Part shown: piece after piece, positions 1,685-37,893 of the stretch
Position numbering within the stretch: position 1 is the first letter of the stretch
Layout of the letters: each line of letters begins with the position of its first letter
NCBI GenBank assembly: GCA_038059695.1
Contig: JBBTIZ010000011.1
Span: forward strand, 1-52,500
Reading direction: 5' to 3'
DNA: 52,500 nucleotides
Origin: Planctomycetota bacterium
GTDB taxonomy: Bacteria; Planctomycetota; MHYJ01; JACQXL01
Notes under the pieces: model-generated
Seen by the model: only the letters and a program-made list of their open reading frames with translations
Databases searched by the model: none
Told to the model about the DNA's origin: nothing
Program-made: the position numbers and the translations under genes

Positions 1685-2510
1685 TTTGCTGATTCAGGCC
1701 ACCATCGGATGCCCCCACAATAAATGCACCTTCTGCGGGATGTATAAAGGCAAAAGATTCCGCATCCGACCGGTTGATGAAATTAAAGAAGATATCCTGA
1801 CGGCCCGGAAATTATACGGCGATGCCTTTGACAGCGCTTTTTTCCCGGACGGCAACACTATTATAATGAGGACTTCCCAATTGGAGGAAATCTTCACCTT
1901 CGCGCGCCGGACATTTCCTAATCTCAAGCGGATTACGCTCTATGCCTCGGCCAAATTCCTGAAACTAAAGTCATTGGCAGACCTGAAACGGCTCAAAGTA
2001 GCCGGGCTTAACCGGCTGCACAAAGGATTGGAAAGCGGGAATGACGAAATACTGCGGCGCATCCAAAAAGGCGCTGATTCCAAACTGATGATATCCACCG
2101 GCCAGAAAGTCAAAGCCGCCGGCATAGAATTAAGCGAATACGTCCTGGTCGGCATCGGCGGTGCGGAATTATGGGCCGAGCACGCCCAGGATACAGCCCG
2201 GGTGCTCAATGCAATCAACCCGGACTTCATCCGCCTGCGCACCTGGGTGCCGGTGCCCAATGCGCCATTATATGAAGATTATCAAAGCGGTAAATTCCAA
2301 CTGCTCTCGCCGCACCAAGCGCTCAAGGAAACCCGGCTGTTGCTGGAAAATCTTGATGTCAGCAGTTTATTCTTGAGCGACCATATTTCCAACTTTGTCA
2401 ACCTGTCCGGCCATCTGCCCCGGGACAAGCAAAACATGCTCGACAAGATAGACCGGGCATTAAAGATGGACGAATCATCATTCAGGTCTGAAATAATAGA
2501 GCACCTGTAG
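1638..2510 (+). CDS. Radical SAM protein
   Basis: YRPPSEA..QATIGCPHNKCTFC CxxxCxxC motif; likely start ATG 1638. Confidence 0.9.
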   Translation: MRYEDPIYRPPSEADSLLIQATIGCPHNKCTFCGMYKGKRFRIRPVDEIKEDILTARKLYGDAFDSAFFPDGNTIIMRTSQLEEIFTFARRTFPNLKRITLYASAKFLKLKSLADLKRLKVAGLNRLHKGLESGNDEILRRIQKGADSKLMISTGQKVKAAGIELSEYVLVGIGGAELWAEHAQDTARVLNAINPDFIRLRTWVPVPNAPLYEDYQSGKFQLLSPHQALKETRLLLENLDVSSLFLSDHISNFVNLSGHLPRDKQNMLDKIDRALKMDESSFRSEIIEHL

Positions 2511-2551
2511 ATAAAACAGGATTCACCACTGGCGCCAAAAGTCACAAAGAT

Positions 2552-2578
2552 GTCATTCCCGCGAAAGCGGGAATCCAG
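2552..2578. repeat. dRS3-like REP hairpin
   Basis: GTCATTCCCGCGAAAGCGGGAATCCAG; related nested element at 32203-32272. Confidence 0.75.
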
Positions 2579-2596
2579 AAGACCAAGATAAAACTA

Positions 2597-2733
2597 AACA
2601 GGGACTCTTAAGAGACCTTTACGAGACCGTATCTCAAGTCTCTTAGCAGTCTCGTTCAAGTCCCTGTTATATCTTATTCGTGCGATTCGTTCCATTCGTG
2701 ATATTCGTGTTCTCTTTCGTGTCCATTCGTGGT
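2597..2733. repeat. Inverted repeat (AACAGGGACT/AGTCCCTGTT) followed by an ATTCGTG short-repeat run
   Basis: Read directly from the sequence. Confidence 0.65.
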
Positions 2734-3563
2734 TACACAATATAGCCGATAACATACGGATTGAACGTGACACTCACGTTCCCGCTCGCATCCGTAAACG
2801 AATACTGAAAACTCCCGGCAGTTATGGGAACAATCACCTGTCCGCCGTAGACCTGTCCGACATTGCGCGCCTCTACGCCAATCGCATAACATTCCTGCTG
2901 GGTTGCATCGCGCCTCAAGCGGCAGTTAATAAAGCCCTGGGGCGGCGGGGCAATACTCTGCTGGACCAGTTCCACCTGCAGGAGCAGGGCCGTGGCCTCT
3001 GCCGGAATACCCGGATTCGGGGCGCTCGGCATCCAGTCCTGATTTCCGCTGACGATTAAACTGGTCAACTGGAGCCGGGTCGGCAGGAAGGTGATTTGAC
3101 TTCCGCCACCCGCGCCCGGCGCCAGCTTTTCGGCTGTCACCGCGCCATTCTGGATTTCCCCGGTTCCGATAGCATTATTGGCAATCTTTCCCTGGGTAAT
3201 TGTGTTGGTGGCGATTTTAGAGTTGGTGATGGTCGCATCCCTTATCTTCTCGGCTGTCACTGCCTGGTTTGCCAGCTCATCCGTATCCACCGCCCCGGTC
3301 GCCAGATGCCGGCGCTCCACGCAATTGTCTGCCAGCTTAGCCGCTGAAATGGAATTATCCGGTATGCCCACAGATGGCACATCATCGCCCAGCTTGGCCA
3401 GGGTCACGGCCTTATCGGCAATATCCTCGGTCTTGACCTGCTGGTTCTTGATATCGCGCGACTCGATGGTCTCATCCGCTATTTTATCAGAGGTCACCGC
3501 GCCTTCGGTTATCTGGGGCGTGGTCACCTGCCCGCTCCCGAAATATCTTGGATTGTATGTCAT
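2733..3563 (-). CDS. Tail-fibre-like protein with 10-residue (G/N)AVTxxKIA repeats and a C-terminal beta-rich domain
   Basis: GAVTSDKIA, KAVTLAKLG, QAVTAEKIR, ATITNSKIA, GAVTAEKLA repeats typical of phage fibre shafts. Confidence 0.65.
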   Translation of the reverse strand: MTYNPRYFGSGQVTTPQITEGAVTSDKIADETIESRDIKNQQVKTEDIADKAVTLAKLGDDVPSVGIPDNSISAAKLADNCVERRHLATGAVDTDELANQAVTAEKIRDATITNSKIATNTITQGKIANNAIGTGEIQNGAVTAEKLAPGAGGGSQITFLPTRLQLTSLIVSGNQDWMPSAPNPGIPAEATALLLQVELVQQSIAPPPQGFINCRLRRDATQQECYAIGVEARNVGQVYGGQVIVPITAGSFQYSFTDASGNVSVTFNPYVIGYIV

Positions 3564-3727
3564 ATAATTAATCCTTTCTACAACAGGATTTAGCGGATTT
3601 ATCTGATTTCCGTTTAATCCTGTTTAAGTACCCGGTGCGTTCCAGTAGGTACTCCCGACCAGTGTTTCGCACAGGGCCTGTTGTTAAAAACGGGATTCGG
3701 GGCGTCTCGAGCCGCCCTTTCATCCCT

Positions 3728-3785
3728 TTAGAGCCAGTTAGATTTTAGTCGTTACAGGCTCTTATCCCGACTATTTCGTCGGGGC
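3728..3785 (-). repeat. TAA-punctuated double-hairpin element, copy A
   Basis: Minus strand: GCCCCGA..TCGGGA TAA GAGCCTG TAA CGACTAAAATC TAA CTGGCTC TAA. Confidence 0.8.
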
Positions 3786-3791
3786 ACGACC

Positions 3792-4586
3792 TTACGGTGT
3801 CGTCAGTCCCACCTGCACATGCAGATACAGCCGCGCTTCGGCGTCAACCGCCCAGATGCAGAAACACTTATCCGCTCCGGTAGTCAGCACGAAGGCATCG
3901 CACTTGGCGATGTCGCGCAGACCGTTCAGGACCGAGGCGTTGAGCGTATTCTGGGCCAGCCGAACGCTATCCGTTCCGGCATAGTCCGCGAACAACCCGC
4001 TCTGGACCAGCCTCTGTTCCAGGGCCGCCTTGAGCACCGGCTCTTCGCCGTCTCGGGCGATGTCGTAAGGCGCGCCGTCCTGGTAATCGCCTTCAGCCAG
4101 CCAGCCGCTGGCGTGCATCTCGCCGACCATAAAGGCCGTAGCCACAGTCGCCGGCCCGCGTCCCCGGACCTTGTCACCGGTGAAACGCAGTGTGGTGGCG
4201 CCCATCTTCAGGGCCCACCAGTCCTTGGCGTTAGCCACGGCCGCCTTGAAGGCCGTTGCCCCGTTGCCCAGCTTCTCGGTCAGATTGCTGACCCATTTGC
4301 TGAACGACCCGGCCAGCTTCTTCTGGCGCAGGGCCTTAATGACCTCGGTAGTCCGCCCGCCCTTGCTCCGGTAAGCCGGATTCAGGACATTGGCGTACTC
4401 GTTGGTGGACGGATTAGCCAGTATGTCAAAGAACGCCCCATCGGTCGGCATCTTGGCCATCTGGCGGTCCAGCATCAGCTGGGCGCTGTTACCCAGATTG
4501 TCCGACCACTTGTTCGGCATATCGCCGGAAACCTCGCGGTTCGGCGCCGGGTAAAGCCGCAACTCAAATTTCTTATCAAATGCCAT
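3792..4586 (-). CDS. Hypothetical protein, candidate major structural/coat protein
   Basis: Clean GC-rich ORF with SD GAGGGGG; Ala/Lys-rich helical N-half with spaced KW motifs; no family recognised. Confidence 0.55.
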   Translation of the reverse strand: MAFDKKFELRLYPAPNREVSGDMPNKWSDNLGNSAQLMLDRQMAKMPTDGAFFDILANPSTNEYANVLNPAYRSKGGRTTEVIKALRQKKLAGSFSKWVSNLTEKLGNGATAFKAAVANAKDWWALKMGATTLRFTGDKVRGRGPATVATAFMVGEMHASGWLAEGDYQDGAPYDIARDGEEPVLKAALEQRLVQSGLFADYAGTDSVRLAQNTLNASVLNGLRDIAKCDAFVLTTGADKCFCIWAVDAEARLYLHVQVGLTTP

Positions 4587-4640
4587 CTTAATCACCCCCT
4601 CTCATTGGCTGTTACAGTTCAAATGTTAATGCATGCATGT

Positions 4641-4733
4641 TTACTTCTTGTTCCTCTTTTCCAGATAATCCAAAAGCATTTCCACTATCACCTGTATTAC
4701 TTTTCTCCAAAACCCAGACATCGCTTCGAACAT
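4641..4733 (-). CDS. 30-aa amphipathic peptide MFEAMSGFWRKVIQVIVEMLLDYLEKRNKK
   Basis: Strong SD AAGGAGGT 7 nt before ATG 4733; an in-frame upstream ATG at 4832 also has an SD. Confidence 0.55.
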   Translation of the reverse strand: MFEAMSGFWRKVIQVIVEMLLDYLEKRNKK

Positions 4734-4815
4734 TGCTACCACCTCCTTTTTAATAGAGCAATGACCGCGCAGCGCACACCACAGTGGACGCGTAGCGATT
4801 ATCATCCGCCAAAAA

Positions 4816-5202
4816 TTAGACATCAGCCTCATACAAATCACCTCCCATCCTCGGTTCTATCTCCTGAATCAAATCCCAATAACCCTTAGAAAACCGACGG
4901 CCTGTTCCGTATTTATCCAGCCACTCATCCCAGAGCACAAACATGAGCACCTCGATAATCTGCTGTTTCAGATGCGGATAGACCCGGGCCAGGGCTTTTA
5001 GATCCTTGGCGATATCCTGCCGGATAGCCGGCTTGTTGTCCGCGGCGAACTCCAGCAGGCGCTTAAGCGAGCCGAAACTGCGCAGGATATAGAGGTAGGG
5101 ACGGACCAGCCGGAACGACGCCTCGTAGAGACCGGGCTGGTCGTAGAACTGCTCCTTCAGGAACTCAAAACTCGTGTAACTATCTGCGTGTTTCCTTTTC
5201 AT
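4816..5202 (-). CDS. Hypothetical protein (128 aa)
   Basis: ORF with SD AGAGAGG and host-like codon usage. Confidence 0.7.
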   Translation of the reverse strand: MKRKHADSYTSFEFLKEQFYDQPGLYEASFRLVRPYLYILRSFGSLKRLLEFAADNKPAIRQDIAKDLKALARVYPHLKQQIIEVLMFVLWDEWLDKYGTGRRFSKGYWDLIQEIEPRMGGDLYEADV

Positions 5203-5218
5203 ATAAAACCTCTCTTTC

Positions 5219-5276
5219 TTACTCGCTGTTAAACTTTAGTTGTTACAGCGAGTTAGACCCCGCAGAATTGCGGGGC
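5219..5276 (-). repeat. TAA-punctuated double-hairpin element, copy B
   Basis: Minus strand: GCCCCGCA..TGCGGGGTC TAA CTCGCTG TAA CAACTAAAGTT TAA CAGCGAG TAA, then SD. Confidence 0.8.
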
Positions 5277-5278
5277 AT

Positions 5279-6082
5279 TCATTGTTTGTGGTTATCCAAG
5301 AAATTATAAATTTCATTTATCGGCACAACCCCAGCCATTGTGGTGACCAGTTGTCCATTGTAAACCTTAACCCATACCGCTATACCAATGACTTCATATG
5401 TCCGGGCGTCGTAGACAGGTCCACCTGAATTTCCTGGAAGTATGGGAGCGGAAATCTCGTAACATGAACCACTGAAGGCACTGAGGCACCCTGAAGAAGG
5501 CCGGGGCGGAAGACCCAAGGAGCATCCAACCGCCCATATAGGAGTAAATAGATACGGAGTATAATTCTGAGGCGCTAATTTTGCTTTTGTCACAGAGCCA
5601 CAGAGGCCACTGAGAAGAGCCAGGTCTTTTGCAGTATCTGTTATAACTACAGTTGCTTGTATTTCTTTTGTTACAGGATAAAAGAACTCTATTGTTACAC
5701 TGGATTCATCCTGGACGACATGTGCTGCAGTTAAAATATATATCTGTTCTGTGTTTTCAGTGTCTTCTGTGGTGAATACTACTCCTGAACCCGTCGAGCA
5801 TCCCGCAGTTATTCTTACTGTTGGATATAGAAGTTTCTCATATTCATCCTGATATGGATGCCTTGGTTTTTCAGGCGCCTTTATTATTACTATTTCTGTC
5901 TCTGTGGTCTCAGTGTCTCTGTGGTAAAAACTCGTCCCCAGGAGAACTATCAGTGCAATCCCTAATATCTGCGTTAATCTGCGTACCATAACCCACCATC
6001 CTTTCTTTATGGAGACGGTTGGCCTCTGCGGGCTCTGTGCCTCAGTGGCTAATCTTTTGTTTCTCCATAAGGAGGGGGTCAT
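5279..6082 (-). CDS. Membrane-anchored trypsin-like serine protease
   Basis: LTAAHV, DLALL and GNSGGP catalytic triad motifs; N-terminal hydrophobic helix; start uncertain. Confidence 0.85.
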   Translation of the reverse strand: MTPSLWRNKRLATEAQSPQRPTVSIKKGWWVMVRRLTQILGIALIVLLGTSFYHRDTETTETEIVIIKAPEKPRHPYQDEYEKLLYPTVRITAGCSTGSGVVFTTEDTENTEQIYILTAAHVVQDESSVTIEFFYPVTKEIQATVVITDTAKDLALLSGLCGSVTKAKLAPQNYTPYLFTPIWAVGCSLGLPPRPSSGCLSAFSGSCYEISAPILPGNSGGPVYDARTYEVIGIAVWVKVYNGQLVTTMAGVVPINEIYNFLDNHKQ

Positions 6083-6261
6083 ATGAACCCTTTTCCTATA
6101 AATCTGAGGCGAGTATTTTCGCTATTTTGCCATATTTATGAGGGAATATAAGGGGTTAAAGAAAATGCAAAAATCCGGGCAGGCCAAAAACGCAGGACTC
6201 GTTTTCCTCTAAGTGAGGGGGATAGGGGGTAGTACCCCACCCTAGCACCCTAAGGCCGGAC

Positions 6262-6535
6262 AGATAGCCTGATTTATCAGGGCATATAGCCGAAATGATT
6301 AGGTCAGATAGCCCGATTAGTCAGGCAGGATAGCCGAAATGATTAGGTTAGATAGTCCGATTAGCCGGGCCATATAGCCGAAATGATTAGGTTAGATAGC
6401 CCGATTGATTAGGTCAGATAGTCCGGTTGATTAGGTCAGATAGCCTGATTAGTCGGGCAGGATAGCCGAAATGATTAGGTCAGGTAGTCGGTCTGGTTGG
6501 GCCAGATAGTCTGATTAGTTGGGTCAGATAGCCGG
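6262..6535. repeat. Degenerate tandem array, 22-bp period, 12 full units plus a partial unit
   Basis: Units like AGATAGCCGAAATGATTAGGTC start every 22 bp from 6262 to 6526. Confidence 0.92.
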
Positions 6536-6597
6536 AAAATGAGGGGTGGATAGTGGGGATAAAGAACCGGCCGGCCGGCGCTATTCCGATTGGCGGC

Positions 6598-7263
6598 CTA
6601 TTTCAATAACTTGCGGGCCAGGTTGTGCAGTTCCGGATTGGCCAGGGCCAGGACCTTTTTCTTGACCACCCGCGAGAAATATTCCGTCTCGGTCTTAGTG
6701 AGTTTTTCGCCCTGCAATTTCTTCAGGAACAATGACTTTTGCCCGGCGGAGAACAACTGGGACAGGGCATATTCCAGCCCGGCCTCTGATTTCAGCGCCA
6801 TCAGGTCATTGAGATTTGATTCTGAACCCTTGAGATACCGGTTAAAGGTGTTTTTCAGCCGTTGGCCGGACATTGAATAATCCTTTAACTTTAAATCGTG
6901 ATTACGCGTCAATGAGTTGCGGAATTGCTCCAGTTTGCCCCTCAGTTCTTTGGTCAGCATTTGATGGAGTTTTTCGGCCCAGGCAAACTTCAGGCCCAGC
7001 GCCTGATACAGGGCCAGCGACATCAGTACCAGCAGTTTAAAATATACCCGGTCCGCCGGCTTCAGATATTGGCTGGTCCGGCCGTAAGAGAAGAGATTCC
7101 GCTCGGAACTGTTGGCCAGCGCCACCGGAAACCCCTCCCAGAGCCGCAGGTCGCGGGACTGCACCAGCCGGGCCAGGGTCAGATTGGCGTCCACCATTGA
7201 TTCCGGCTCCATTAACTTAAAACCCAGACTGCTTAGGTTGTTCAGCAATTCTTTGTCATTCAT
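6598..7263 (-). CDS. Hypothetical protein, probable partner (antitoxin/regulator) of the nucleotidyltransferase
   Basis: Overlaps the upstream gene; basic C-terminal HTH-like segment LFSAGQKSLFLKKLQGEKLTKTETEYFSRVVKKK. Confidence 0.6.
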   Translation of the reverse strand: MNDKELLNNLSSLGFKLMEPESMVDANLTLARLVQSRDLRLWEGFPVALANSSERNLFSYGRTSQYLKPADRVYFKLLVLMSLALYQALGLKFAWAEKLHQMLTKELRGKLEQFRNSLTRNHDLKLKDYSMSGQRLKNTFNRYLKGSESNLNDLMALKSEAGLEYALSQLFSAGQKSLFLKKLQGEKLTKTETEYFSRVVKKKVLALANPELHNLARKLLK

Positions 7264-7843
7264 TGATTAACTTCTCCTTCTTGAGGATACGCCAAAAATG
7301 CTCCAGATTCTTCAGCACGGCCTCTTCCGAGGTATCGTATTGAGCGGTGGCTTCGAACCGGCTCCGGAGCTTGGTGAAATCTATCTCCCTGGTTTTGGCC
7401 CGGATTAAGGCCAGGCAGTCGTCAATATCCACCTGAGTAAACCGAAAGAGCTTGCTGATAATCAGGTCATAATGATTAAGCATGCCCAGATAAATCCGGC
7501 TGAACTCCTTAACCAAAACGTGGTTACCCGGCTCCAGCGGCGACTCCAGAAGTTCGGTCGTATGAATCCGCTTGTACCGGAACAGGTCGAATATAAAACC
7601 ATCGTCCCGGCTCCAGCCGTAGGCCTTGACCGGCTTATAGCCCAGTTGGTCCAGGGTCTTAATCAGGTAGTCGTATTCGGCCTGGACCGGCACCAGCAAA
7701 TCAATATCCTTGGTTGAGGGCTTGATGCCCTGGAGCGTTAGGGCCGTGCCGCCGCAGGCAATCAGATGCACGCGCCGCTTGAGGAAATCGTTCCAGACCA
7801 TCAGCCGGCCGAACAACCCGCCTTTATCTATTCTGTAATCCAT
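7256..7843 (-). CDS. DUF6036/AbiEii-like nucleotidyltransferase
   Basis: ACGGTAL..TKDIDL pol-beta-type NTase motif; DLIISKL..D. Confidence 0.8.
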   Translation of the reverse strand: MDYRIDKGGLFGRLMVWNDFLKRRVHLIACGGTALTLQGIKPSTKDIDLLVPVQAEYDYLIKTLDQLGYKPVKAYGWSRDDGFIFDLFRYKRIHTTELLESPLEPGNHVLVKEFSRIYLGMLNHYDLIISKLFRFTQVDIDDCLALIRAKTREIDFTKLRSRFEATAQYDTSEEAVLKNLEHFWRILKKEKLINE

Positions 7844-7864
7844 AAACCTGAATAATTATTAATA

Positions 7865-7975
7865 TTATGGCCGTTACCCTCACAGGCTAGATTTTAGCTG
7901 GCCGAGAGGGTTACGGCAGGTTATCCCGCTACGATAAACCGCCTATCCCGTAAAACGTTACACATAAAGCGGGGC
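7865..7975 (-). repeat. TAA-punctuated double-hairpin element, divergent copy C
   Basis: Minus strand: GCCCCGCT..AGCGGGA TAA CCTGCCG TAA CCCTC..GAGGG TAA CGGCCA TAA, about 20 nt before ATG 7843. Confidence 0.65.
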
Positions 7976-8286
7976 ACAATATATTGTATAATTTAATACA
8001 ATCCTTTGTATGTATATATACAATAATTAAAACACTTGTCAAGTAAAATATTTATTTTTATGCGGGATTTTAACCGAATGGTGCCCCATCCGGGTCTTAA
8101 GGGCTGTTTCTCCAAAGCGTGGCCTTAAATGCCGGGCCAGCGGAAATTAGCCGGGCTGAAACAGACCATCCTGGCCGTTAGGCAATATGTCAGGTATTGA
8201 GGTATTAGGAAAACGATGCCTTGCGAAGTCGCAGCGAAGTCCCGATTATTTCGGGGTAATGCAGATAAATCAAGGGTTATAAAATA

Positions 8287-8301
8287 TGTGGTCTGTCCCA
8301 C
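8287..8301. repeat. RAYT-type end motif, perfect inverted partner of 9993-10007
   Basis: TGTGGTCTGTCCCAC vs GTGGGACAGACCACA. Confidence 0.7.
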
Positions 8302-8326
8302 TGATGTGCGATACTTACTCTTTCAA

Positions 8327-9846
8327 TTATATAGCAGATTCCTCAACCTCAAATTCTGGGACCTCTACCGAATTTCCCTTACCCCAAAGTATCTCCCAAA
8401 TTAACCACTTAGTAAGAAATGATTCTATTTTGAATATAGTTTTAGCATCTTCTTCTAGAACTTTTTCTCCTTTATGTAAGAATCTGTTTCTTTTGTTTTT
8501 CATTTGTATGATTAAACTATATTGCTTAAAGTTTATCTGGCCAGAGAGGCTAAGAATTTCTACTGCTCTGTCGGCTGTATAATTTTTTAGTTTATTTTTC
8601 CTGTCTCCAATAATTTCAGTAGATTTTTGTTCCAGGAACTTATCCCACAAATAATTTATAAATTTTTCAATAACCATCCATCCCATTATAAACGTTTGAT
8701 TGTATTCGGATCCTTGTAAATAAGAATATGACTCCAATAAATAAATCAGAAGCTCTGCTATGGTCTCATTTTTTGTAAAAAGTTCGGCTTGCTTTATTGT
8801 TTCTTTTACCTGTTCTTCAGAAATCTCTCTTGTTATATTAAAATCATAGCCAGTCCTTTGCTTAGGCGTAAATTCACCTTCAAATGCGGTGGTTCTTAAT
8901 GAAACATGCATCGGCATGCTTCTACTGCCTATTTCTGATTTATCTGGAGATATTTCTGCTGTGCCTAATTCTAATTCTTTTACAGCGTAAAATGGGATAT
9001 TGAGAAGTAACGCCGTAGCCATTATTTCATTCAACATCTTTAAGGCTTGAGTTTTCTCGTTAACGCCAATCGCAATAAATCCATTTTCGTTAACAACAAT
9101 CTTACATCCTCTGTATTCTATATCAAAAGATTTTTTAGGCCACATGAATACCCTGGAATCAAACGCTTTTTCTTCAAAACTTGGATTGGGCTTTTTGCCA
9201 ATCCAAATTGGGGGATAGAAGTAAGTTCCAAAACCTTTTATTGAAACTGGAGGAGTTTGTTGAGGGGCAGAAACTGGTTGGTTCTGAGATTTTACTCTAT
9301 TTGTTGCATAACCTATGATTTGACTGATTATTTTTTTGTATCGAGTTGCTGAACATTCCCGCTTGCTTTCCAGGAAAAAGAATCATCTGTAAGTCTACGT
9401 TTCATTCCAATTCCAGCTTGATACAAGTTCTGTTTAGAAAATATAGTGATAAAGGCTCCTCCTTTGAAGCTTCTCAACAAGTCAATAAAAAGCCCTTCAA
9501 GTAACGTAGCATATATTCGCTTAGATTCATTTTTGCTAATCCGTATTTCGTCTTCCGGTAGTTTCCGCTGCCATTTTTCATCTTTTAATTTTTCCTTTAA
9601 TTTTTCTGATGCTTCATTTGAGTCGCTTTCATTAACGATTATATCTAAATCAGGCTTGTCTTTAAAGTGCGTAAAAATGAAAAGTTGATCCTGTATCATT
9701 AAACCGTGATTCTTAATAACAAAGACTTCTACTTGTAAAGGAGAACTTAAATTGTCAAGGTTGCTTACATTTTCTTTGTCTTGTTTCGAAAGTTTGGCAT
9801 ACTCTGTACGAAAATCTTGAACTAAATGTCTAATCCAATTTTGCAT
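8327..9846 (-). pseudogene. AT-rich HEPN-domain gene split by a -1 frameshift at an A7 run
   Basis: ORF 9328-9846 ends ACA AAA AAA TAA; the -1 frame is open from there into ORF 8327-9145, which carries RNRFLH (HEPN RxxxxH). Confidence 0.7.
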
Positions 9847-10063
9847 AATAACCTTAATTCGGGGGACACCATACTCAATTCCCCCCTACCCCCTAACCTC
9901 CGCGTGTTCATCCTTGGTCAGGCAGATATAGGTGTCTTTCTTGTCTTTAGCGATTCCCACTCTGCGCTTACGTCCTCGTGGGACACGTCCTCGTGGGACA
10001 GACCACACATTTTCTTTCCCTTTATTTACGCGGGTTCTAAGACGCAGTTTCGCTAAAACGCCC

Positions 10064-10654
10064 CTATTTTTTAGAACCCTGCTCCTTCCGGTAAATTGCT
10101 TGTTCAACCTCGGTCAGGCAGAAGGCGTATTTTTTAGGGCCAGCCGCCTCGGCGGGGTTTTCAAACATCCTCAGCTTGCCCTCGCAGGCCAGCCAGCCGA
10201 TACCCATCGCTGTATAGTCCTGCTTCGCCTTTATCCGTTTTTGTATCAGGTCGGATGTCAGGCGGCATTCTTTGGCGGTTTTGCCCGCCTGACCTTGCCC
10301 GTCGGGCAGGTCTTCCGCGCCTAAGCAATGCCATATCTGGCCGGCAGTTTCACCGACCTTGTGGCGGAACTCTTTCGCTGATTGCCTTTCTTCATCGGTC
10401 ATTTCATAGTGCAGCTCCCAGGCCGGTTCGTTATAGGGCGATTTTTCAAGATAGGCGGCCCGTCCGATTTTGACCAGTTCATCCATTTGTTCCTTTATCA
10501 CTTCAGGGCTCAGCCCGGTTTGGTCAGCTATTCGCTGGATAGTCCAAACGCTTTGTTTATAGAGGTAGTCCCATACTTTACCGGCGGCCTGGCCGATAAC
10601 TACTTTCGGGTCTACTTCTTTCCATTGCGGCTGTTGAACGGTTTTCTTCGGCAT
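10064..10654 (-). CDS. Tandem DUF2582-like winged-helix protein
   Basis: IGQAAGKVWDYL and VGETAGQIWHCL..MGIGWLACEGKL; SD GGAGGAG before ATG 10654. Confidence 0.7.
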   Translation of the reverse strand: MPKKTVQQPQWKEVDPKVVIGQAAGKVWDYLYKQSVWTIQRIADQTGLSPEVIKEQMDELVKIGRAAYLEKSPYNEPAWELHYEMTDEERQSAKEFRHKVGETAGQIWHCLGAEDLPDGQGQAGKTAKECRLTSDLIQKRIKAKQDYTAMGIGWLACEGKLRMFENPAEAAGPKKYAFCLTEVEQAIYRKEQGSKK

Positions 10655-10770
10655 ATTTTTCTCCTCCTGTTTATCTGCGCAATCAGCGTCATCTGTGGTT
10701 GCACTGATGATAATCTGGAGACACATACTACTCATTGGCACTATACCTTTATTCGCCTGTTAAATCAACC

Positions 10771-11250
10771 TTAATCCTCTTTTTTATGGCCTTTCTTTTT
10801 CTTGTCGCCACTCAGGCGCTTTTTGTTCTTTTCATACATCTTTTCCAGGCCCAGAAGCCAGTGGCTGATGGTATTCGGGCTTTCGCCCAAATCAGCGGCC
10901 ATGGCCTTTATCACCCCGCCGCACTTGGCCAGCGATTTCAGGCGTAACAGCTCCTTTACTCCCGGAAAATTCAGGCATTGGATGGCCTGGAATACGCCGA
11001 TTAATAATTTGCGGAATCCCTCGTGCTTGCGCTCAGGTAAGTCCGAGGACAATTCGCCGTCGTTCTTGGCCTGGAATATGTCGAATTTAGACGGTCCGGA
11101 TGCTTTGCGGCGTGATGGGCCGTTCCGGGGATTTTTGGTTTCCCCTGGCTTATCTACCGGTTTTTCAGGACGCTGGTCGCTCTCATCAAAGAAGTTTTCA
11201 TCATTGCGTGCCGGTTCCTTAAAGTTGTTATCCGGAGTGGCACAACATAT
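10771..11250 (-). CDS. Hypothetical protein with a C-terminal HTH-like segment (ATA start or frameshift)
   Basis: Frame is open from ATA 11250; VIKAMAADLGESPNTISHWL looks like an HTH. Confidence 0.5.
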   Translation of the reverse strand: MCCATPDNNFKEPARNDENFFDESDQRPEKPVDKPGETKNPRNGPSRRKASGPSKFDIFQAKNDGELSSDLPERKHEGFRKLLIGVFQAIQCLNFPGVKELLRLKSLAKCGGVIKAMAADLGESPNTISHWLLGLEKMYEKNKKRLSGDKKKKGHKKED

Positions 11251-11570
11251 TTAATCGCCTCCCCCCAAATCAGGGGGAACCAAAAGTGTCAGGTCATCCG
11301 GGTCAATCCGGACGGCCGCCGTTTTTCTGGTTTCTCCTTTCTAGTTTTAATCTGGGGAATCTGTGTAATCTGTGGTTCCCCTCCATATATATGAATGTTT
11401 GAGCACCCCTAAAAACTGCAATCAATCTCAATTTTTCTCAGTATTTATGCGGTTTCCAGGGCGTTTCCCTCCACTTATATAAACCAAAAAGAAGACGAAA
11501 AGTTGCTATGAAAATGAGATTTGTAAGCAGATTTAGCGGATGGGTAATCAGGTGTATTTATCCGCACGTT

Positions 11571-11835
11571 TTATTCCTTAGACGCAGTTAATTGGGCAAC
11601 GGTGGGGATGCCGGCCGAGCCCGCCGGCAGGATGCCCAGCCGGACGTAAATCGGATGGATGGATTTTCTGATTTTGCCGAGTTGAGAGGCAAAGACCAGC
11701 GCGGCCAGGATGCAGACCCCGCCCCCGATAGCCAGGATGGCCGGCGCGCCGATGACGCTGGCCACGCTACCGGCCAGCAGGATGCCCAGCGGCATGATGC
11801 CCATAAAGGCCAGGGTAAACAAGATCATAACCCGA
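11571..11835 (-). pseudogene. 3' fragment of an MFS transporter
   Basis: RVMILFTLAFMGIMPLGILLAG..PIYVRLGIL last TM helices; 5' part replaced by TAATCTGG repeats. Confidence 0.75.
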
Positions 11836-11896
11836 GATAATCTGGGATAATCTGGGGATAATCTGGGATAATCTGGTAATCTGGGGTAATCTGGGG
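11836..11896. repeat. Six tandem TAATCTGG(G) units
   Basis: Read directly; the units copy the outer tip of the adjacent inverted repeat. Confidence 0.85.
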
Positions 11897-12097
11897 ACAC
11901 AATACTAGTTAATTTATTGCACACTCCTAAATAATAAGTTACAATAATAACACTATGGCACGATTAGCCAAAGCCGTTATTCCGGGGATTCCGCACCATG
12001 TTACCCAAAGAGGCAATCGCAGACAACAGGTATTTTTCCGAGATGCTGATGACATATAGGTTAAACAGGAGGAAAACTAGTATTGTGTCCCCAGATT
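11888..12097 (+). mobile_element. Miniature RAYT derivative with perfect 23-bp terminal inverted repeats
   Basis: AATCTGGGGACACAATACTAGTT / AACTAGTATTGTGTCCCCAGATT; internal ORF 11955-12059 MARLAKAVIPGIPHHVTQRGNRRQQVFF is a RAYT N-terminus. Confidence 0.85.
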
Positions 12098-12099
12098 AA

Positions 12100-12336
12100 G
12101 CAGATATTTCTCATATAGTAGGTTATGTTGATGCGTTTATTTTTGAGCCACATTTTTTATACCCAGACTTAATTGTTTTTAGTCCATTAGCAATAGAAAA
12201 TGAACAGGAAAATTCTCTTTTTGCGTTACTTGCTCATGAGTGTGCGCATGTTGTTCTTGGACATGCAATAGAATCGCCTGTTGAGCCAGAACCGGAGGCT
12301 GATGCCGTAGGAAGTTATATATATACTTTACGTTAG
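12100..12336 (+). pseudogene. Start-less zincin metallopeptidase (HExxH) C-terminal fragment
   Basis: Manual translation: ..LFALLAHECAHVVLGH..EPEADAVG..TLR*; begins at the IR boundary. Confidence 0.65.
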
Positions 12337-12340
12337 TAAA

Positions 12341-12868
12341 ATGAAAGGAACGATTACTATGATAAACTGGAAACGGTTAATGATAACATTGCTTATAGTA
12401 ATAAGTGCTAGTTGTATTTTGTTAGTGCCTAGTATTTGTCGCGGCGTAAGAGCAATAGATATTAAATGCAGGCTAAATTTATTAGCAATTAGTGATGGGT
12501 TGGGTAGATATTTTGAGACGAATAAATATTATCCTCAGCAGATAGAGGAAATTAAGCAGTATTTATTGGAAAGAGGATTAAATGCAGAATTAATATTTAA
12601 ATGCCCTGCGGACAAAGATAAAGTCAATAAAATAGACTATGAATATTTTTCTATTAGTCGTGCTGATGCGACTGAAACAACGGTACTAGTATATGAAAAA
12701 CAAAACAATCATTATATTGGTTGGTGGGCATTTGGATTAAAGGCATACAATGCCAGACATGTTTTAATCAGTGATGGCAAAAACAAGGATATAAAATTAT
12801 ACTCGGATGACGATTTCAAGGTACTATTAGACAAACATCAACGCAAGCCGGATAAGGAAAATAAGTAA
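12341..12868 (+). CDS. AT-rich exported hypothetical protein (pseudopilin-like N-terminus; possible immunity protein)
   Basis: N-terminal TM helix, then CRLNLLAISDGLGRYF..YP. Confidence 0.6.
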   Translation: MKGTITMINWKRLMITLLIVISASCILLVPSICRGVRAIDIKCRLNLLAISDGLGRYFETNKYYPQQIEEIKQYLLERGLNAELIFKCPADKDKVNKIDYEYFSISRADATETTVLVYEKQNNHYIGWWAFGLKAYNARHVLISDGKNKDIKLYSDDDFKVLLDKHQRKPDKENK

Positions 12869-12914
12869 TCCAAGATGATTTCTATTTACGATAAAGAAGA
12901 CAATCGGTCGTATA

Positions 12915-13032
12915 GTGCCAGAGGGACACTTCCCACCGCCGGAATCCCTTTACTTTCCTATCCCGCGTGTCTTGTGCCAGAGGGACACTTCCCACCGCCG
13001 GAATCCCTTTACTTTCCTATCCCGCGTGTCTT
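12915..13032. repeat. Exact 59-bp tandem duplication containing the RAYT end
   Basis: 12915-12973 equals 12974-13032. Confidence 0.9.
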
Positions 13033-13748
13033 TCTTGTTATAAAATCCCTTCCCAGTAACTCCGCCATTCGGTTTACGAATCTCTTATCACCTATGGGCT
13101 TGCCTGTTTTTGTCGCCTTCCGGATTAAATTCGTCTCGGATTCTTCCGCTTCTGCTTTGATTGTCTTAAGATACTCCTCCCGTTCGCCCTCGTCAAATAA
13201 ATCCTCGGTTAATACATCATCTTTAATCCCTTTAATGTGCGCCACCGCGCTGGAATACGGGTAATCCTCTATTTCCTTTACTATCCGGGCTCGTTTCGGA
13301 TTCCGCTCAATGTACCGGGCCACGACCCATAAATACGGCTCTTCATCTATAATACAAGAATGAAAACGGCTTTCCCATAATCGCCCCGTCCTTTTATATC
13401 GCCTGTTAATGTATTGCGTATAAGACAAACTCACCCCCTGCATCATCTTGGCAAATGATTCTTCTTTACCGGGACGAACCAAGAGGTGAACATGGTTAGT
13501 CATCAGGCAATAAGCCAGGATAGAGACATCCCATCTGGTGGCGTATTCCTTTAGCAGGTCTAAATACCTAGCGCGTGTTTCCTGGGCAAAGAAGACCTTT
13601 TGCTTGTTATTACCTCTTTGAATGACATGATGAGGAAAATCCACGGCGACCGCTCTGGCAACTCTCGGCATAAGAGGTACTTTATAAAAACTATGTCTTA
13701 TGTGTCAAGTAAATTAAGTGTTGTAGCCGGTGGGAAGTGTCCCTCTGG
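12977..13748 (-). mobile_element. RAYT element bounded by 21-bp inverted repeats
   Basis: CCAGAGGGACACTTCCCACCG (12977-12997) / CGGTGGGAAGTGTCCCTCTGG (13728-13748). Confidence 0.8.
13009..13671 (-). CDS. REP-associated tyrosine transposase (Y1 HUH)
   Basis: HHVIQRGNN, YCLMTNHVHLL (HUH), YIERNP, YPYSS motifs. Confidence 0.92.
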   Translation of the reverse strand: MPRVARAVAVDFPHHVIQRGNNKQKVFFAQETRARYLDLLKEYATRWDVSILAYCLMTNHVHLLVRPGKEESFAKMMQGVSLSYTQYINRRYKRTGRLWESRFHSCIIDEEPYLWVVARYIERNPKRARIVKEIEDYPYSSAVAHIKGIKDDVLTEDLFDEGEREEYLKTIKAEAEESETNLIRKATKTGKPIGDKRFVNRMAELLGRDFITRKTRGIGK

Positions 13749-13835
13749 GCGTTGGTTCCACCATCTGCCACGGCAACATCAGTACCACCAGGATAGTATT
13801 GTTAATCTGGGGACACATACGAATTTTTCTTCCTG

Positions 13836-14984
13836 CTACCCGAACTTCTTTTTGAGATGGGTTTGATAAGTCCGAAAATCAGTTGTTATCTCGGCTATGG
13901 TCCTCCCCGGGAATCGGCTGATAAAGGCCCGGGCTATTTCAAATGCCACGACTGCCTCGCCGATGACTGACGCGGCCGGGACCGCGCAGATGTCGCTGGA
14001 TTCTACCTGGGCCTTGGCCGGACGTTTGGTTCTCAGGTCTATGGTCGGCAACGGTCTTTTCAATGTCGGAATGGGTTTTACCGCGGCCCTTACTATTATA
14101 TTCTCGCCACTGGTCAACCCGCCTTCAATCCCGCCGGCATAGTTGGTCATCCGCTTCCAGCCGCCATATTTGTTTAGAATAGGCCTATTATTATGTGTGG
14201 CAAATAAATCCATCACCTGCGAGCCGGGTTTATCCGCATAGCCGAATCCCAGGCCGATTTCTACGGCTTTAACGGCCGGGATAGCCATTATTGCCTGGCT
14301 CAAACGGGCATCAAATCGGTCCTGCCAATGGGTATGGTCGCCCAGGCCGACCGGGATATTGAATCCGGCTACCTCAAAGCAGCCGCCCAAGGTGTCGCCA
14401 TCATTTTCTGCCTCGCTTAAGAGATGCTTCCATTCAGGGATAACATTTTTGTCAAGGGTGTAGAAAGATGTTTGTCTGCCAGTCCTCCAGTTAACCGGTC
14501 GGCCGGTTGGATGGTCTGCCTGAACAGAGCCGATTTGGGTTGTATAGCCAAACACCTTAATCGCAAAGTAATCAAGGAGTGATTTAGCAACAGAGCCGGC
14601 GATGACGCGTCCGACTGTGGTCCGGGCGCTGGCTTGCTCAGCCCCGATGCGGCCATCCGGAACCAGGAACTTCATTGCCGCAGCCAGGTCAATATGACCG
14701 GGCCTGACCCTGGTTATGGGCGGTAAGAAATCAAGGGTGTTTTTCTGGTTCCGGACCTGGATGGTGATAGGCGCGCCGAGGGTTTTGCCATTCTTCAATC
14801 CGCTCAGGATTTCTATTTTATCTTTTTCTAAAGACATCCTGGGTCCGCGTCCGGCGCAGGCCCTGCGGCGCTTGAGTTCGGAATTGATTACTTCTTCTTT
14901 GATGCGGACACCGGCCGGGAAGCCGCTGATAACGGTAATGATGGCCTGGCCGTGCGATTCGCCGGCTGTAATATATTCAAGCAT
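13836..14984 (-). CDS. aroC: Chorismate synthase
   Basis: TAGESHG, RPGH, ASARTT, GGIEGG, KPIPTL motifs. Confidence 0.93.
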   Translation of the reverse strand: MLEYITAGESHGQAIITVISGFPAGVRIKEEVINSELKRRRACAGRGPRMSLEKDKIEILSGLKNGKTLGAPITIQVRNQKNTLDFLPPITRVRPGHIDLAAAMKFLVPDGRIGAEQASARTTVGRVIAGSVAKSLLDYFAIKVFGYTTQIGSVQADHPTGRPVNWRTGRQTSFYTLDKNVIPEWKHLLSEAENDGDTLGGCFEVAGFNIPVGLGDHTHWQDRFDARLSQAIMAIPAVKAVEIGLGFGYADKPGSQVMDLFATHNNRPILNKYGGWKRMTNYAGGIEGGLTSGENIIVRAAVKPIPTLKRPLPTIDLRTKRPAKAQVESSDICAVPAASVIGEAVVAFEIARAFISRFPGRTIAEITTDFRTYQTHLKKKFG

Positions 14985-18580: not shown

Positions 18581-18591
18581 ATAATACTGCA

Positions 18592-18684
18592 GCCCCGCCC
18601 CGCTGTAACATCGGGACGGGATAAAAGCCGGCCCCTGACGGGACTCCCTTTGGTCGTAACAACCATAGGGCTAACTGGCTCTAA
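18592..18684 (+). repeat. TAA-punctuated double-hairpin element, copy D (with nested insert)
   Basis: GCCCCG..CGGGA TAA AAGCCGG ... C TAA CTGGCTC TAA, 12 nt before the pgk ATG. Confidence 0.7.
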
Positions 18685-18696
18685 AAAGAGATTGCT

Positions 18697-20552: not shown

Positions 20553-20676
20553 AAATTCTCAACCACAGATTAACACAGATTAATTTAATCAGCCCAATCT
20601 GCCAAATCCGCTTACAAAATATCATTTTTATAGAACCGCAAGGCCATTTATTTCGTTTATATAGATGTGGAAAGAA

Positions 20677-20745
20677 GCCCCCGCCTGCGGCGGGGCTAAC
20701 TCGCTGATAACGCCCCGACATTACGCCGTGGCTAACAGCGAGTAA
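20677..20745 (+). repeat. TAA-punctuated double-hairpin element, copy E
   Basis: GCCCCCGCC..GGCGGGGC TAA CTCGCTG(A) TAA C..GC TAA CAGCGAG TAA GGAGG. Confidence 0.8.
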
Positions 20746-20755
20746 GGAGGCGTTT

Positions 20756-26746: not shown

Positions 26747-27252
26747 TGGAATATAAATCTATTTTAAGGTCTGTCAGAAGCGCGCCGCGTAAGACACGCT
26801 ATGTGGTGGATATGCTGCGCAACAAGTCCATCCCGGAAGCACAGCGGATTCTGAAATATACCCCCAAGCGCTCGTCGTATTTCCTGCTCAAACTGGTTAA
26901 TTCGGCGGTGGCTAATGCCACGAACCGGGACGCCAATCTATCTCCGGAGAATTTATATATCAGTGAAATAAAAGTAGGTGACGGCCCGGCATTCAAGCGA
27001 TTACGGTACGGTTCTATGGGCCGCGCCTCCCAGGTAAAGAAACGCACCTCCCATATCACCCTGGTATTATCCACCATAGGCGGATCCGCCTCTGGCGGAA
27101 AAACTGTTACACAACCAGCCCAGTCATCCCTGCCGGCCGGCAGGCATGGCGGTCATTCCCACCCTGAAGCGGCGCCGAAGCGCCAAAAGGCGGCGTCCGG
27201 ACCACCGGGTCACCCTGAGGGCGAGAAGAAAAAGGAAAGTAAAACCAAATAA
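26746..27252 (+). CDS. rplV: 50S ribosomal protein L22 with a repeat-derived C-terminal extension
   Basis: SAVANA, KRTSHIT, then about 58 extra residues. Confidence 0.93.
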   Translation: MEYKSILRSVRSAPRKTRYVVDMLRNKSIPEAQRILKYTPKRSSYFLLKLVNSAVANATNRDANLSPENLYISEIKVGDGPAFKRLRYGSMGRASQVKKRTSHITLVLSTIGGSASGGKTVTQPAQSSLPAGRHGGHSHPEAAPKRQKAASGPPGHPEGEKKKESKTK

Positions 27253-28046: not shown

Positions 28047-28457
28047 ATGTTAATGCCCAAAAGGATAAAATACCGTAAATGGCAACGGGGTACGATGAAG
28101 GGCGAAGCCCAAAGAGGCAATTTTGTGGCCTTCGGCGAATACGGATTAATGTGCCTGGAACGCGGCTGGCTCTCAGCCCAGCAAATAGAAGCCGGCCGGG
28201 TGGCGATTACGCACCAAATGCCGCCCACAGGAAAATTCTGGCTGAGAATCTTCCCGCATAAGCCGATTACGGCTAAGCCGGCCGAAACCAGAATGGGCAC
28301 CGGCAAGGGCGAACCGGAATATTATGCGGCTGTAGTAAAAAAAGGCACGGTTTTATTTGAGGTCGACGGCGTGAGCGAGGATGTCGCCCGCAAGGTTTTT
28401 AACAGCGTGGCCCATAAGATGCCCTTTAATACCAAATTAGTTAAACGAATACATTAG
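28047..28457 (+). CDS. rplP: 50S ribosomal protein L16
   Basis: RIFPHKP, RMGTGKG. Confidence 0.97.
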   Translation: MLMPKRIKYRKWQRGTMKGEAQRGNFVAFGEYGLMCLERGWLSAQQIEAGRVAITHQMPPTGKFWLRIFPHKPITAKPAETRMGTGKGEPEYYAAVVKKGTVLFEVDGVSEDVARKVFNSVAHKMPFNTKLVKRIH

Positions 28458-28528
28458 AGCCGGTTAGATGCAGCGACCCGTAGGGGCGATGTATCGTTAC
28501 CGACTCTTATCCCGACGAATGTTGGGGC
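28454..28528 (-). repeat. TAA-punctuated double-hairpin element, copy F (antisense to the operon)
   Basis: Minus strand: GCCCCAAC..GTCGGGA TAA GAGTCGG TAA C..C TAA CCGGCTC TAA. Confidence 0.8.
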
Positions 28529-28560
28529 TGGATAAAAGTTTCCCGGAAGGACTGAAATAT

Positions 28561-32202: not shown

Positions 32203-32272
32203 TGTCATTCCCGTCCCGCATCGGAATGCGGGATAAACTCCGGCTGGAATTCCTGCTTACGCAGGAATGACA
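32203..32272. repeat. Nested REP element TGTCATTCC..GGAATGACA
   Basis: Terminal inverted repeat with internal hairpins. Confidence 0.7.
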
Positions 32273-32358: not shown

Positions 32359-32438
32359 CAACCCCCTTTATCCCCCTTTAGTAAGAGGGAATTAGAATTC
32401 CCCACCACTCCCCCTTAGAAAAGGGGGCCGGGGGGTTG
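32359..32438. repeat. CCCCCTT/AAGGGGG REP doublet
   Basis: Related copies at 37772-37857 and inside bioA at 31477-31522. Confidence 0.7.
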
Positions 32439-32538
32439 TCCCTACGGGAGGCCATTAGGCTCTACCTTCGTATCCTTTGTGCGCTTTGTGGTGAAAAAAT
32501 ATCTTGTGCTTTTCGTATCTTTGTGGTAGAAATATTAT

Positions 32539-35588: not shown

Positions 35589-35601
35589 ATATTTATTTCC
35601 T

Positions 35602-37749: not shown

Positions 37750-37893
37750 TTCAGCCACCAAGGCACTAATACAACCCCCTCGCCCCCTTTAATAAGGGGG
37801 AATTAGTGGCCCCCGAATTAGTCCCCCTTAACAAAGGGGGAATAAAAGGGGGTTGTTTCCTAAGTGGCAATGAATTCTCTTGATAGGTAATGT

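Follow-up and report, generated by a model that had tools for sequence, protein, structure and literature searches.

TAA-punctuated modular hairpin repeats near start codons in an uncultured family of Planctomycetota

Repeat copies in the window and size of the family

The stretch analyzed here, called the window, is a 52,500-nucleotide contig of a Planctomycetota bacterium (GenBank assembly GCA_038059695.1, contig JBBTIZ010000011.1). It is one whole contig of a 1.27-Mb genome (G000; 92 contigs, 55.5% complete, 48% G+C). The window carries nine copies of a structured repeat, which lie before genes such as pgk and murJ, between rplP and rpmC, and in one case inside der/engA, as well as a gene for a RAYT-like Y1 (HUH) transposase (Table 1). 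The nine copies are part of a family of hundreds of small modular hairpin repeats that belongs essentially to one uncultured bacterial family. The unusual traits of these repeats are their punctuation by TAA, the exchange of modules at fixed sites, and placement flush with ribosome-binding sites.

Each repeat unit consists, in order, of a GC-rich 5′ hairpin (typically CCCGnc-loop-gnCGGG), a linker (A or TC), TAA, a 7-nt arm, a second TAA that is followed by C in 60 of 72 strict copies, an inner segment, TAA, the complementary arm, and TAA. The inner segment is an 11- to 14-nt hairpin, a hairpin of ~29 nt, or a longer composite. TAA often precedes the 5′ hairpin as well (for example, TAATCCCG...CGGGATAA), and therefore the whole unit reads as a series of short modules punctuated by TAA. 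The linker type covaries with the base after the last TAA: all 22 copies with a TC linker have G there, and this combination would extend the outer helix by a C-G pair across the TAA/TAA pair.

An earlier note on this DNA had described nine copies with nearly invariant TAAs and a two-fold symmetric TAA-N7-TAA site. We built an alignment of 43 short-class copies selected for at least 6/7 arm pairing (A1) and, from it, a covariance model (R1). Direct reading and the R1 scores located a copy at every position given, alignment A1 displays both features, and the arm pairs quoted (GAACCGG/CCGGTTC, CTCGCTG/CAGCGAG, GAGCCGG/CCGGCTC, and GAGTCGG/CCGGCTC) are correct. The nine-copy observation is confirmed as real, and it was understated. 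That eight of the nine are cooriented with transcription and six end 3 to 22 nt before an ATG holds within the window, but the orientation bias is weaker genome-wide (64 sense versus 38 antisense copies). Two points of context needed correction, since the copy at 38400 lies inside the der/engA frame and the copy at 3728 is well removed from the next long open reading frame (ORF).

Table 1. Repeat copies in the window and the Y1 transposase gene with its inverted repeats. Bit scores of copies are those of model R1.
Feature	Position	Strand	Score	Structure and context
Copy 1	3725-3796	−	54.1 bits	GC hairpin GCCCCGAC..GTCGGGA, then TAA-GAGCCTG-TAAC-inner-TAA-CTGGCTC-TAA; one T.T mismatch; in the 11.4-kb island, 164 nt upstream of ORF 2733-3563
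Copy 2	5216-5287	−	71.6 bits	Arms CTCGCTG/CAGCGAG; last TAA 16 nt before the ATG of ORF 4816-5202
Copy 3	7862-7955	−	14.7 bits, E 0.53	Degenerate, with long inner part and arms partly decayed; upstream of ORF 7256-7843 (DUF6036)
Copy 4	18590-18687	+	17.7 bits, E 0.13	Additional module between first arm and TAAC; last TAA 12 nt before the pgk ATG (18697); site empty in G001, G002, G005, and G006
Copy 5	20665-20748	+	46.3 bits	Arms CTCGCTG(A)/CAGCGAG; 10 nt before the ATG at 20756
Copy 6	28451-28541	−	42.1 bits	Antisense, between rplP and rpmC
Copy 7	35599-35697	−	31.1 bits	Arms GAACCGG/CCGGTTC, long inner hairpin; 16 nt before an ATG; site empty in G001 and G002
Copy 8	38400-38470	+	31.3 bits	Degenerate, third TAA missing; within der/engA ORF 37894-39336 (linker that joins the two Der GTPase domains), frame open
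Copy 9	44528-44600	−	64.0 bits	Arms CTCGCTG/CAGCGAG; last TAA 3 nt before the murJ ATG
RAYT-like Y1 (HUH) transposase gene	13009-13671	−	PF01797 (Y1_Tnp) 4.7e−19; NCBIfam REP_Tyr_transpos 73.8 bits (cut-off 80)	Intact; HUH (HVH) and Y..NP motifs readable
Inverted repeats of the Y1 gene	12918-12955 and 13711-13748			38 nt, imperfect; 21-nt core perfectly complementary

The arms of the repeat, which the earlier note had described as paired in the nine copies, are complementary far beyond chance. TAA-N7-TAA sites occur 57 times in the window versus 29.7 ± 5.1 times in shuffled sequence, and none of 100 shuffles reached 57. Genome-wide, without preselection for pairing, 186 pairs of such sites lie 3 to 90 nt apart; the arms are complementary at 7/7 positions in 55 of them and at 6/7 in 25, compared to 0.5 and 2.75 when the arms were permuted. 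Segments of the form TAA-hairpin-TAA number 374 versus ~114 in shuffled sequence, and there were no cases of a minimal stem that lacked the inner part (TAA-arm-TAA-arm′-TAA). In A1, the covariation score of the proposed structure was 0.809 versus 0.173 in shuffles (0/500 reached it) and was at most 0.075 when the partners were slid; six of the seven pairs of the arm stem (P1) change on both sides. Because A1 was chosen for pairing, its figure of 93.3% paired positions is circular, and the unbiased figure is the permuted-arm test on the 186 pairs. This selection does not make arm diversity circular (36 distinct arm pairs among 72 strict copies).

Model R1 gave at least 119 matches in G000 at E ≤ 1 among the best 150 of 334 candidates scored, a sample on which the context counts below also rest. 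The copies are spread over 40 of the 92 contigs, and several matches lie at contig ends, so the repeats probably contribute to breaks in the assembly. A search of 16 genomes across the order at E ≤ 1e−3 found 3 to at least 125 matches (best 150 candidates each) in all 10 genomes of the family, which represent six genera, and 0 to 4 matches in six genomes of four sister families. Among 25 genomes from ten other families of the class, R1 had no matches at E ≤ 0.01. Rfam contained no match at gathering thresholds, and the four weak matches at E ≤ 1 (three to a microRNA precursor model and one to a long noncoding RNA model) overlapped no copy, in agreement with the view that this structured family has no name. 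No description of such repeats was found in the literature, in which the motif TAA is unsearchable and supplements were outside the search. The nearest named relatives of the Der protein encoded in the window are in Phycisphaerae metagenome-assembled genomes (40 to 41% identity; others 33 to 39%), and the metagenomes that contain DNA of this stretch are mostly from groundwater or aquifers.

Placement next to genes and exchange of modules

Gene context was assigned with crude gene calls (longest-ORF greedy, 1178 ORFs, 90% coding). By these calls, the 119 matches in G000 comprise 46 sense and 27 antisense copies between codirectional genes, 13 copies between divergent and 11 between convergent genes, 8 at contig ends, and 14 within called ORFs that are mostly short and doubtful; about 105 matches lie outside long ORFs. 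Relative to the gene at their TAA end, 64 copies have sense and 38 antisense orientation (binomial P = 0.013), and the bias was similarly directed when only codirectional pairs were counted (P = 0.034).

The distance from the last TAA to the start codon is 6 to 21 nt in 28 of the 46 sense codirectional copies, 22 to 44 nt in none, and at least 45 nt in 18. When all 64 sense copies are considered, 37 have the last TAA 3 to 21 nt before a start codon, and the distances peak at 12 to 13 nt (20 of the 55 copies with a start within 60 nt). Start-adjacent copies are ~37 sense versus 5 to 8 antisense. Of the 38 copies with an antisense neighbor on the TAA side, in 12 the stop codon of that neighbor overlaps the final 4 nt, and in 4 it ends 14 to 15 nt within the copy. 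The rplP stop codon in the window, TAG (28455-28457), is the terminal CTAA of copy 6 on the other strand, and its T-TAG falls exactly where other genera have a TAA stop. The hairpin end of the repeat has no comparable placement precision. These results show that the TAA end is precisely placed in one of two ways: upstream of a start codon and immediately 5′ of the Shine-Dalgarno sequence (sense copies), or on the stop codon of a neighbor (antisense copies). Position is thus strongly nonrandom in the genome as a whole. Among 345 element-free genes with a Shine-Dalgarno sequence, a native TAA was found at only 4 to 6% per position from −18 to −14; a native TAA is therefore not a sufficient target.

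The genes downstream are diverse. The 55 downstream ORFs formed 48 blastp clusters and, as read from their N termini, include those for GroEL, RecA, EF-Ts, RRF, ribosomal proteins S6, S13, S17, and L6, PNPase, Prs, BipA, DnaB, MurJ, and a pilin. Only four of the ORFs are paralogues of P0001, the product of ORF 2733-3563 (−) in the window. P0001 is a 276-residue protein with N-terminal VTxxKIAD-type repeats and without a Pfam or NCBIfam match. It belongs to a repeat-rich family with 26 to 68 matches per genome in seven of nine other genomes of the bacterial family; a few genomes of sister families have matches as well, whereas the rest of the class gave none. Several repeat copies with top scores lie directly upstream of P0001 paralogues. 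P0001 was considered as an enzyme for the repeats and rejected, since it was not found in G006, which has at least 96 copies, and is therefore not required.

Two genomes of the same genus, G001 (96% complete) and G002 (92% complete), are syntenic with the window at ~75 to 88% nucleotide identity, and the orthologous sites of 13 and 10 G000 copies, respectively, could be retrieved from them. In G001, 9 of the 13 sites are empty or without the element, 1 has a solo TAA-arm-TAA remnant, and 3 have a copy. In G002, 3 of the 10 sites are without the element and 7 have a copy, none of which is identical in all modules. Among the sites that are empty in a congener are the ones upstream of pgk, frr, rpsF, murJ, and the gene at 35599, and in three other genera rplP and rpmC abut. 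The reverse also occurs: G002 has a copy upstream of gap where a congener is empty, and another between rpsJ and rplC where the window has none. A 102-nt antisense copy in G002 (L079:2729-2818, contig G002:C34) lies in frame within the orthologue of the radical-SAM-like window ORF 1593-2510, adding 34 residues between VPVPNAP and YKDYQSGKF where the window protein reads VPVPNAP|LYEDYQ.

Empty sites were also found at the strain level. In metagenome runs X5 and X6 from another study, which contain a strain ~98% identical to the window (13 differences in 720 nt), contigs join position 18581 to 18691 without the pgk copy, with or without other letters between the joined ends; contigs of these runs do span the rplP and 35599 copies. 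The empty orthologous sites together with this joint bear out the proposal of the earlier note that the repeats spread at the DNA level into translation initiation regions. No target-site duplication was visible at the pgk, 35599, murJ, rpsF, gap, or radical-SAM junctions, where divergence limits resolution. Insertion rules based on TA, on TAA/TTA, on a position 3′ of TTA, or on a position 5′ of a native TAA were each tried and rejected, as each fits some junctions and fails at others (for example, 35599 and rpsF).

Filled sites differ in individual modules. Between G000 and G001, the tsf site kept its 5′ hairpin while the arms (GACCCAG/CTGGCTC versus GATACTG/CAGTATC) and the inner segment changed, and the 20665 site kept its arms and inner hairpin while the 5′ hairpin changed; G002 has a different composite at the latter site. 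The murJ site kept the 5′ hairpin and arms between G000 and G002 with a change of inner hairpin, and it is empty in G001. At the rplP, prs, and C87:5725 sites, the arms are identical or differ by one base and the other modules changed, and at rpsF nothing was kept, the two filled genomes having different composites. Within G000, each of seven inner sequences is combined with two or three arm types, and a single arm type can be found with as many as 13 inner segments. One full unit is nested in the inner segment of another (C73:9143-9234), and tandem copies occur at C2:3564-3751. Comparison within the genus thus shows that units have been gained and lost and single modules replaced at the DNA level.

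Some G000 copies abut tRNA genes in either orientation; the window lacks tRNA genes. Intragenic copies number ~4 to 5 of the 119, including that in der. Copies at G000:C25:16899-16973, C66:1859-1933, C50:3080-3176, and C40:24334-24406 lie deep in long frames (507 to 816 residues) and are candidate in-frame insertions like that in der. The linker of Der (window 38382-38480 compared with L075 and L076) differs in all three genomes of the genus and is a palindrome of short tandem units in G002 (GAGCGT.. / ..AACGCTC); it seems to be a general sink for palindromic inserts.

Explanations for the placement and candidate enzymes

Our best reading is that the repeats are mobile palindromic DNA rather than a conserved regulatory RNA. 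Specifically, we consider the copies to be lineage-specific, small, nonautonomous, modular palindromic DNA repeats that are broadly akin to REP/BIME, BOX, Correia/ERIC, and Rickettsia palindromic elements (RPE), with a probability of roughly 0.7. Such repeats would be cut and joined at TAA/TTA on folded single strands, most plausibly by an enzyme of the HUH/Y1 type or else by an unknown one, and would insert into TAA-containing or A/T-rich spots. Selection would then retain harmless or useful positions, such as the spacers between stop codons and Shine-Dalgarno sequences, stop codons themselves, and tolerant protein linkers. A G-type arm landing on a TAA stop would re-create a stop (TAG), which could explain the class of copies with a 4-nt overlap. 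In transcripts, sense copies would place a stable stem-loop with UAA stops immediately upstream of the ribosome-binding site, and this leader hairpin could insulate or stabilize the downstream cistron. The flush, sense-only placement before Shine-Dalgarno sequences needs either an extended target that includes the purine-rich Shine-Dalgarno region or selection for the leader hairpin and UAA.

A bolder version of this mechanism is that TAA is the cut-and-join site of an undescribed, structure-guided recombination of single-stranded DNA, performed by Y1/HUH or another protein, that swaps hairpin cassettes preferentially 5′ of ribosome-binding sites, and that the repeats have been co-opted as an exchangeable library of 5′-leader stem-loops for highly expressed genes. 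We regard this version as speculative and rather unlikely as a whole.

Several observations weigh against the mobile-DNA reading. The exact insertion junction is not definable at the identity of the congeners, and the strain-level joint may contain other letters. The differences at shared sites fit repeated independent insertion, in-place replacement, and gene conversion equally well. Because the gene calls are crude, the context counts are approximate. The distance peak at 12 to 13 nt and the near absence of antisense copies there could mean that sense copies are retained at the RNA level, and native TAA is too rare to explain the start-proximal peak. With regard to the enzyme, model R1 found no TAA element beside any of nine Y1 loci (the nearest is ~950 nt from one locus), Y1 is widespread in the class (25 of 41 genomes overall, many of them element-free), and G008 has at least 65 copies at E ≤ 1e−3 but no Y1 match.

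The principal alternative is that a leader of the form hairpin-UAA-stem-UAA is a functional RNA module, selected as a 5′ untranslated or intercistronic element, with mobility only as its means of spread. Such a module could stabilize mRNA, insulate the ribosome-binding site, serve as a site of RNase processing, or provide stops in several frames. The spacing of sense codirectional copies from start codons, with its gap at 22 to 44 nt, the excess of sense over antisense copies next to starts, and the rarity of native TAA upstream of Shine-Dalgarno sequences all favor it, as does the fact that the downstream genes are many, unrelated, and typically highly expressed. Moreover, the tsf and prs sites carry a hairpin and then TAA before the Shine-Dalgarno sequence in all three genomes of the genus, with differing modules. 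Against this, the pairing has no strand asymmetry, 38 of 102 classified copies are antisense to the TAA-side gene, several copies are inside ORFs, and a congener simply lacks the element before pgk, frr, rpsF, murJ, and gap. We consider an RNA module possible but hold it only tentatively; it does not exclude the mobile-DNA reading and is compatible with it.

The strand tests bear directly on whether the structure is conserved as RNA. When 118 copies were folded as RNA, the antisense strand gave the more stable fold for 83 copies and the sense strand did so for 32, with mean energies of −32.6 and −31.2 kcal/mol, respectively (Wilcoxon P = 1.8e−6). Mismatches in P1 were C.C (11), A.C/C.A (8), and G.T/T.G (6), so there was no excess of sense-strand wobble pairs in P1, and the trace expected from selection on a transcript is therefore absent. 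The apparent covariation reflects an inverted DNA repeat, complementary by nature, of which there are many subfamilies. A conserved cis-regulatory RNA, which the earlier note had offered as one of two alternatives, is not supported by these results or by the copies, which are polymorphic within the genus, antisense in about one-third of cases, sometimes in frame inside genes, and followed by unrelated genes. A generic cis-regulatory RNA is likewise not supported, as neither structure specific to the transcribed strand nor orthologous conservation was found (G001 is without the element at 9 of 13 sites).

The other alternative, related to the HUH/tyrosine recombinase substrate proposed in the earlier note, is that the repeats are single-stranded DNA substrates of the RAYT-like Y1 enzymes of the family, which would cut at TAA beside the hairpins and insert them 3′ of TTA without duplication, in the manner of IS200/IS605 relatives. 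The Y1 gene in the window is intact, with its catalytic motifs, and Y1 is the only one of five tested transposase families present in all three genomes of the genus, which is the genus richest in copies; TnpB (PF07282), IS110 (PF01548), IS630 (PF13358), and IS4/5 (PF01609) were found in none of the three. Y1 genes also occur in seven of nine other genomes of the family. The form of the repeats is consistent with this, since each end carries a hairpin, the unit as a whole is not bounded by terminal inverted repeats, and no duplication can be seen; the end that is precisely placed is always next to TTA on the opposite strand, and the nested copy lies directly after a TTA. Y1 is a candidate mobilizing enzyme, and its link to the repeats is an inference. 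However, each of the nine Y1 loci has its own flanking inverted repeats (12 to 38 nt, 76 to 100% complementary, ~680 to 790 nt apart), which differ in sequence in most genomes, and the repeat motif of the window Y1 occurs only three times in the genome. The distribution of PF01797, found in many element-free genomes but not in the copy-rich G008, also argues against it. In a comparison of repeat orientation with the direction of replication, oriented local GC skew was positive at 72 copies and negative at 39, but it follows the orientation of the neighboring gene, and this test is thus confounded. No ORF was found as a recurrent gene bracketed by inverted copies, and inverted doublets of the repeat are rare. 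On balance, we doubt that this Y1 is the enzyme that acts on the repeats.

A binding site in double-stranded DNA for a nucleoid or regulatory protein, spread by duplication, would account for the two-fold symmetry and nearly invariant TAAs of TAA-N7-TAA, but it is very improbable, as N7 is free to vary (36 arm pairs among 72 strict copies), so that only the TAAs would be read by a duplex-binding protein, and the half-sites are complementary across a variable spacer of 11 to 70 nt, which a hairpin needs and a duplex site does not.

The Y1 gene belongs to an 11.4-kb stretch (2510-13884) that both congeners lack at the syntenic position, where the flanking genes (a radical-SAM-like gene and that for chorismate synthase) are ~100 to 350 nt apart. 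This stretch also holds three of the nine copies, a low-GC part (0.37 at 8 to 10 kb), and the DUF6036 nucleotidyltransferase gene. In the Y1 unit itself (12918-13748), the 3′ repeat and the last codons are tandemly duplicated (~59 nt). Related Y1 units in other genomes of the family have different repeats with the same spacing of ~720 to 790 nt. At 11828-11920, tandem TAATCTGGG(G)A units are followed by an inverted-repeat copy that matches the flank of a second Y1 gene (G000:C90:32334-32654).

Other small hairpin repeat families occur in the window at 27066-27104, 32228-32260, 32359-32439, and 37770-37851. They include GGCGGATCCGCC..GGCGGA, GCGGGATAAACTCC (24 copies in the genome), and G5/C5 hairpins such as CCCCCTTTAATAAGGGGG. 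The segments at 32359-32439 and 37770-37851 have summed contig depths of 300 to 940 in metagenome runs, compared to ~10 for their flanks. A further hairpin of the G5/C5 type (TAATCCCCC..AAAGGGGGAC..) lies at 31460-31530 inside a class III aminotransferase ORF (30667-32154, −) and has short DNA matches at many places in relatives.

Relation to known repeats and significance

The family has the defining features of none of REP/BIME, BOX, Correia/ERIC, RPE, or MIRU repeats, although it resembles each of them in part. REP/BIME sequences of Enterobacteria and Pseudomonas are likewise short extragenic palindromes present in hundreds of copies, arranged as motif mosaics, lineage-specific, and accompanied by a RAYT gene, to which the Y1 gene here is similar. 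The TAA repeats are also mostly extragenic, high in copy number, and confined to one order (at least 119 matches in 1.27 Mb). REPs sit mainly at the 3′ ends of genes, whereas the repeats described here are flush with Shine-Dalgarno sequences. In the sections of PMC3733652 that define them, REPs are imperfect palindromes of 20 to 40 nt with a GTAG or CGTC tag at one end. Here, TAA stands on both sides of every module and is invariant at four positions, A1 contains no GTAG or CGTC tag, the Y1 genes are not flanked by TAA repeats, and inverted doublets are rare. An identity as RAYT-associated REPs was therefore rejected, both on the tag and on the flanks of the RAYT gene.

The Correia repeats of Neisseria and the ERIC/IRU repeats of Enterobacteria, both miniature inverted-repeat transposable elements (MITEs), are small palindromic mobile repeats as well. 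They have long terminal inverted repeats and a TA duplication, whereas the inverted arms here are 7 bp and internal, and no duplication was seen in pairs of filled and empty sites. A MITE of the DDE type was rejected, since the left end (the GC hairpin) and the right end (arm′-TAA) are not inverted copies of each other and no duplication is visible at the resolution that divergence allows; the candidate parent insertion sequences IS630, IS4/5, and IS110 were not found in G000, G001, or G002. As background sections of PMC3049150 describe, Correia and ERIC/IRU elements are cotranscribed with genes and can change mRNA cleavage or stability in an orientation-dependent manner, and effects of BIMEs are treated there as well. 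The same sections present the BOX elements of Streptococcus pneumoniae as boxA, a variable boxB, and boxC, with a predicted stem-loop when transcribed and effects on the downstream gene that depend on module and orientation (PMC3049150). The modular build and predicted stem-loop are shared with the repeats described here, but the sequence is unrelated, BOX lacks punctuation by TAA, and it is not known to sit flush against the Shine-Dalgarno sequence.

The remaining comparisons concern elements that sit in or between genes or are recognized by structure. RPEs insert in frame into coding genes without breaking them, as the copies in the Der linker and in the radical-SAM-like gene of G002 do, but RPEs are 100 to 150 bp and mostly intragenic, unlike the family here. 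MIRUs lie between cistrons within operons, oriented with transcription and touching the stop and start signals of their neighbors, a likeness to the intercistronic copies here; unlike these TAA-bounded hairpins, MIRUs are tandem direct repeats that encode small coupled ORFs. Miniatures of IS200/IS605 and the attC sites of integrons are recognized in a folded, single-stranded state in which structure matters more than sequence. Both insert in a single orientation, leave no duplication, and have modules that can be swapped as cassettes. The repeats do have hairpins at both ends and a precise TAA end, but the empty sites share no single clear target, no cognate tnpA with matching ends was found, nor was TnpB in the three genomes of the genus. 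The attC consensus is a paired RYYYAAC/GTTRRRY, which does not occur in A1, and TAAC is present here twice in the same direction. Integron attC sites were rejected on these grounds and because the copies are dispersed before housekeeping genes without cassette arrays, no integrase search having been made. We know of none among REP/BIME, Correia/ERIC, BOX, RPE, MIRU, IS200/IS605, and attC that combines targeting of Shine-Dalgarno sequences with exchange of modules at a three-base mark.

These repeats affect genome annotation, as they lengthen ORF calls, provide stop codons, and insert peptides in frame. If their placement reflects the mechanism of insertion, they would represent a mobile element that targets the bases before ribosome-binding sites and swaps its parts at a three-base mark. 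If the placement instead reflects selection, they would be natural modular leader hairpins before groEL, recA, tsf, frr, and ribosomal-protein genes, and would be relevant to the tuning of mRNA stability and translation in an uncultured lineage from groundwater.

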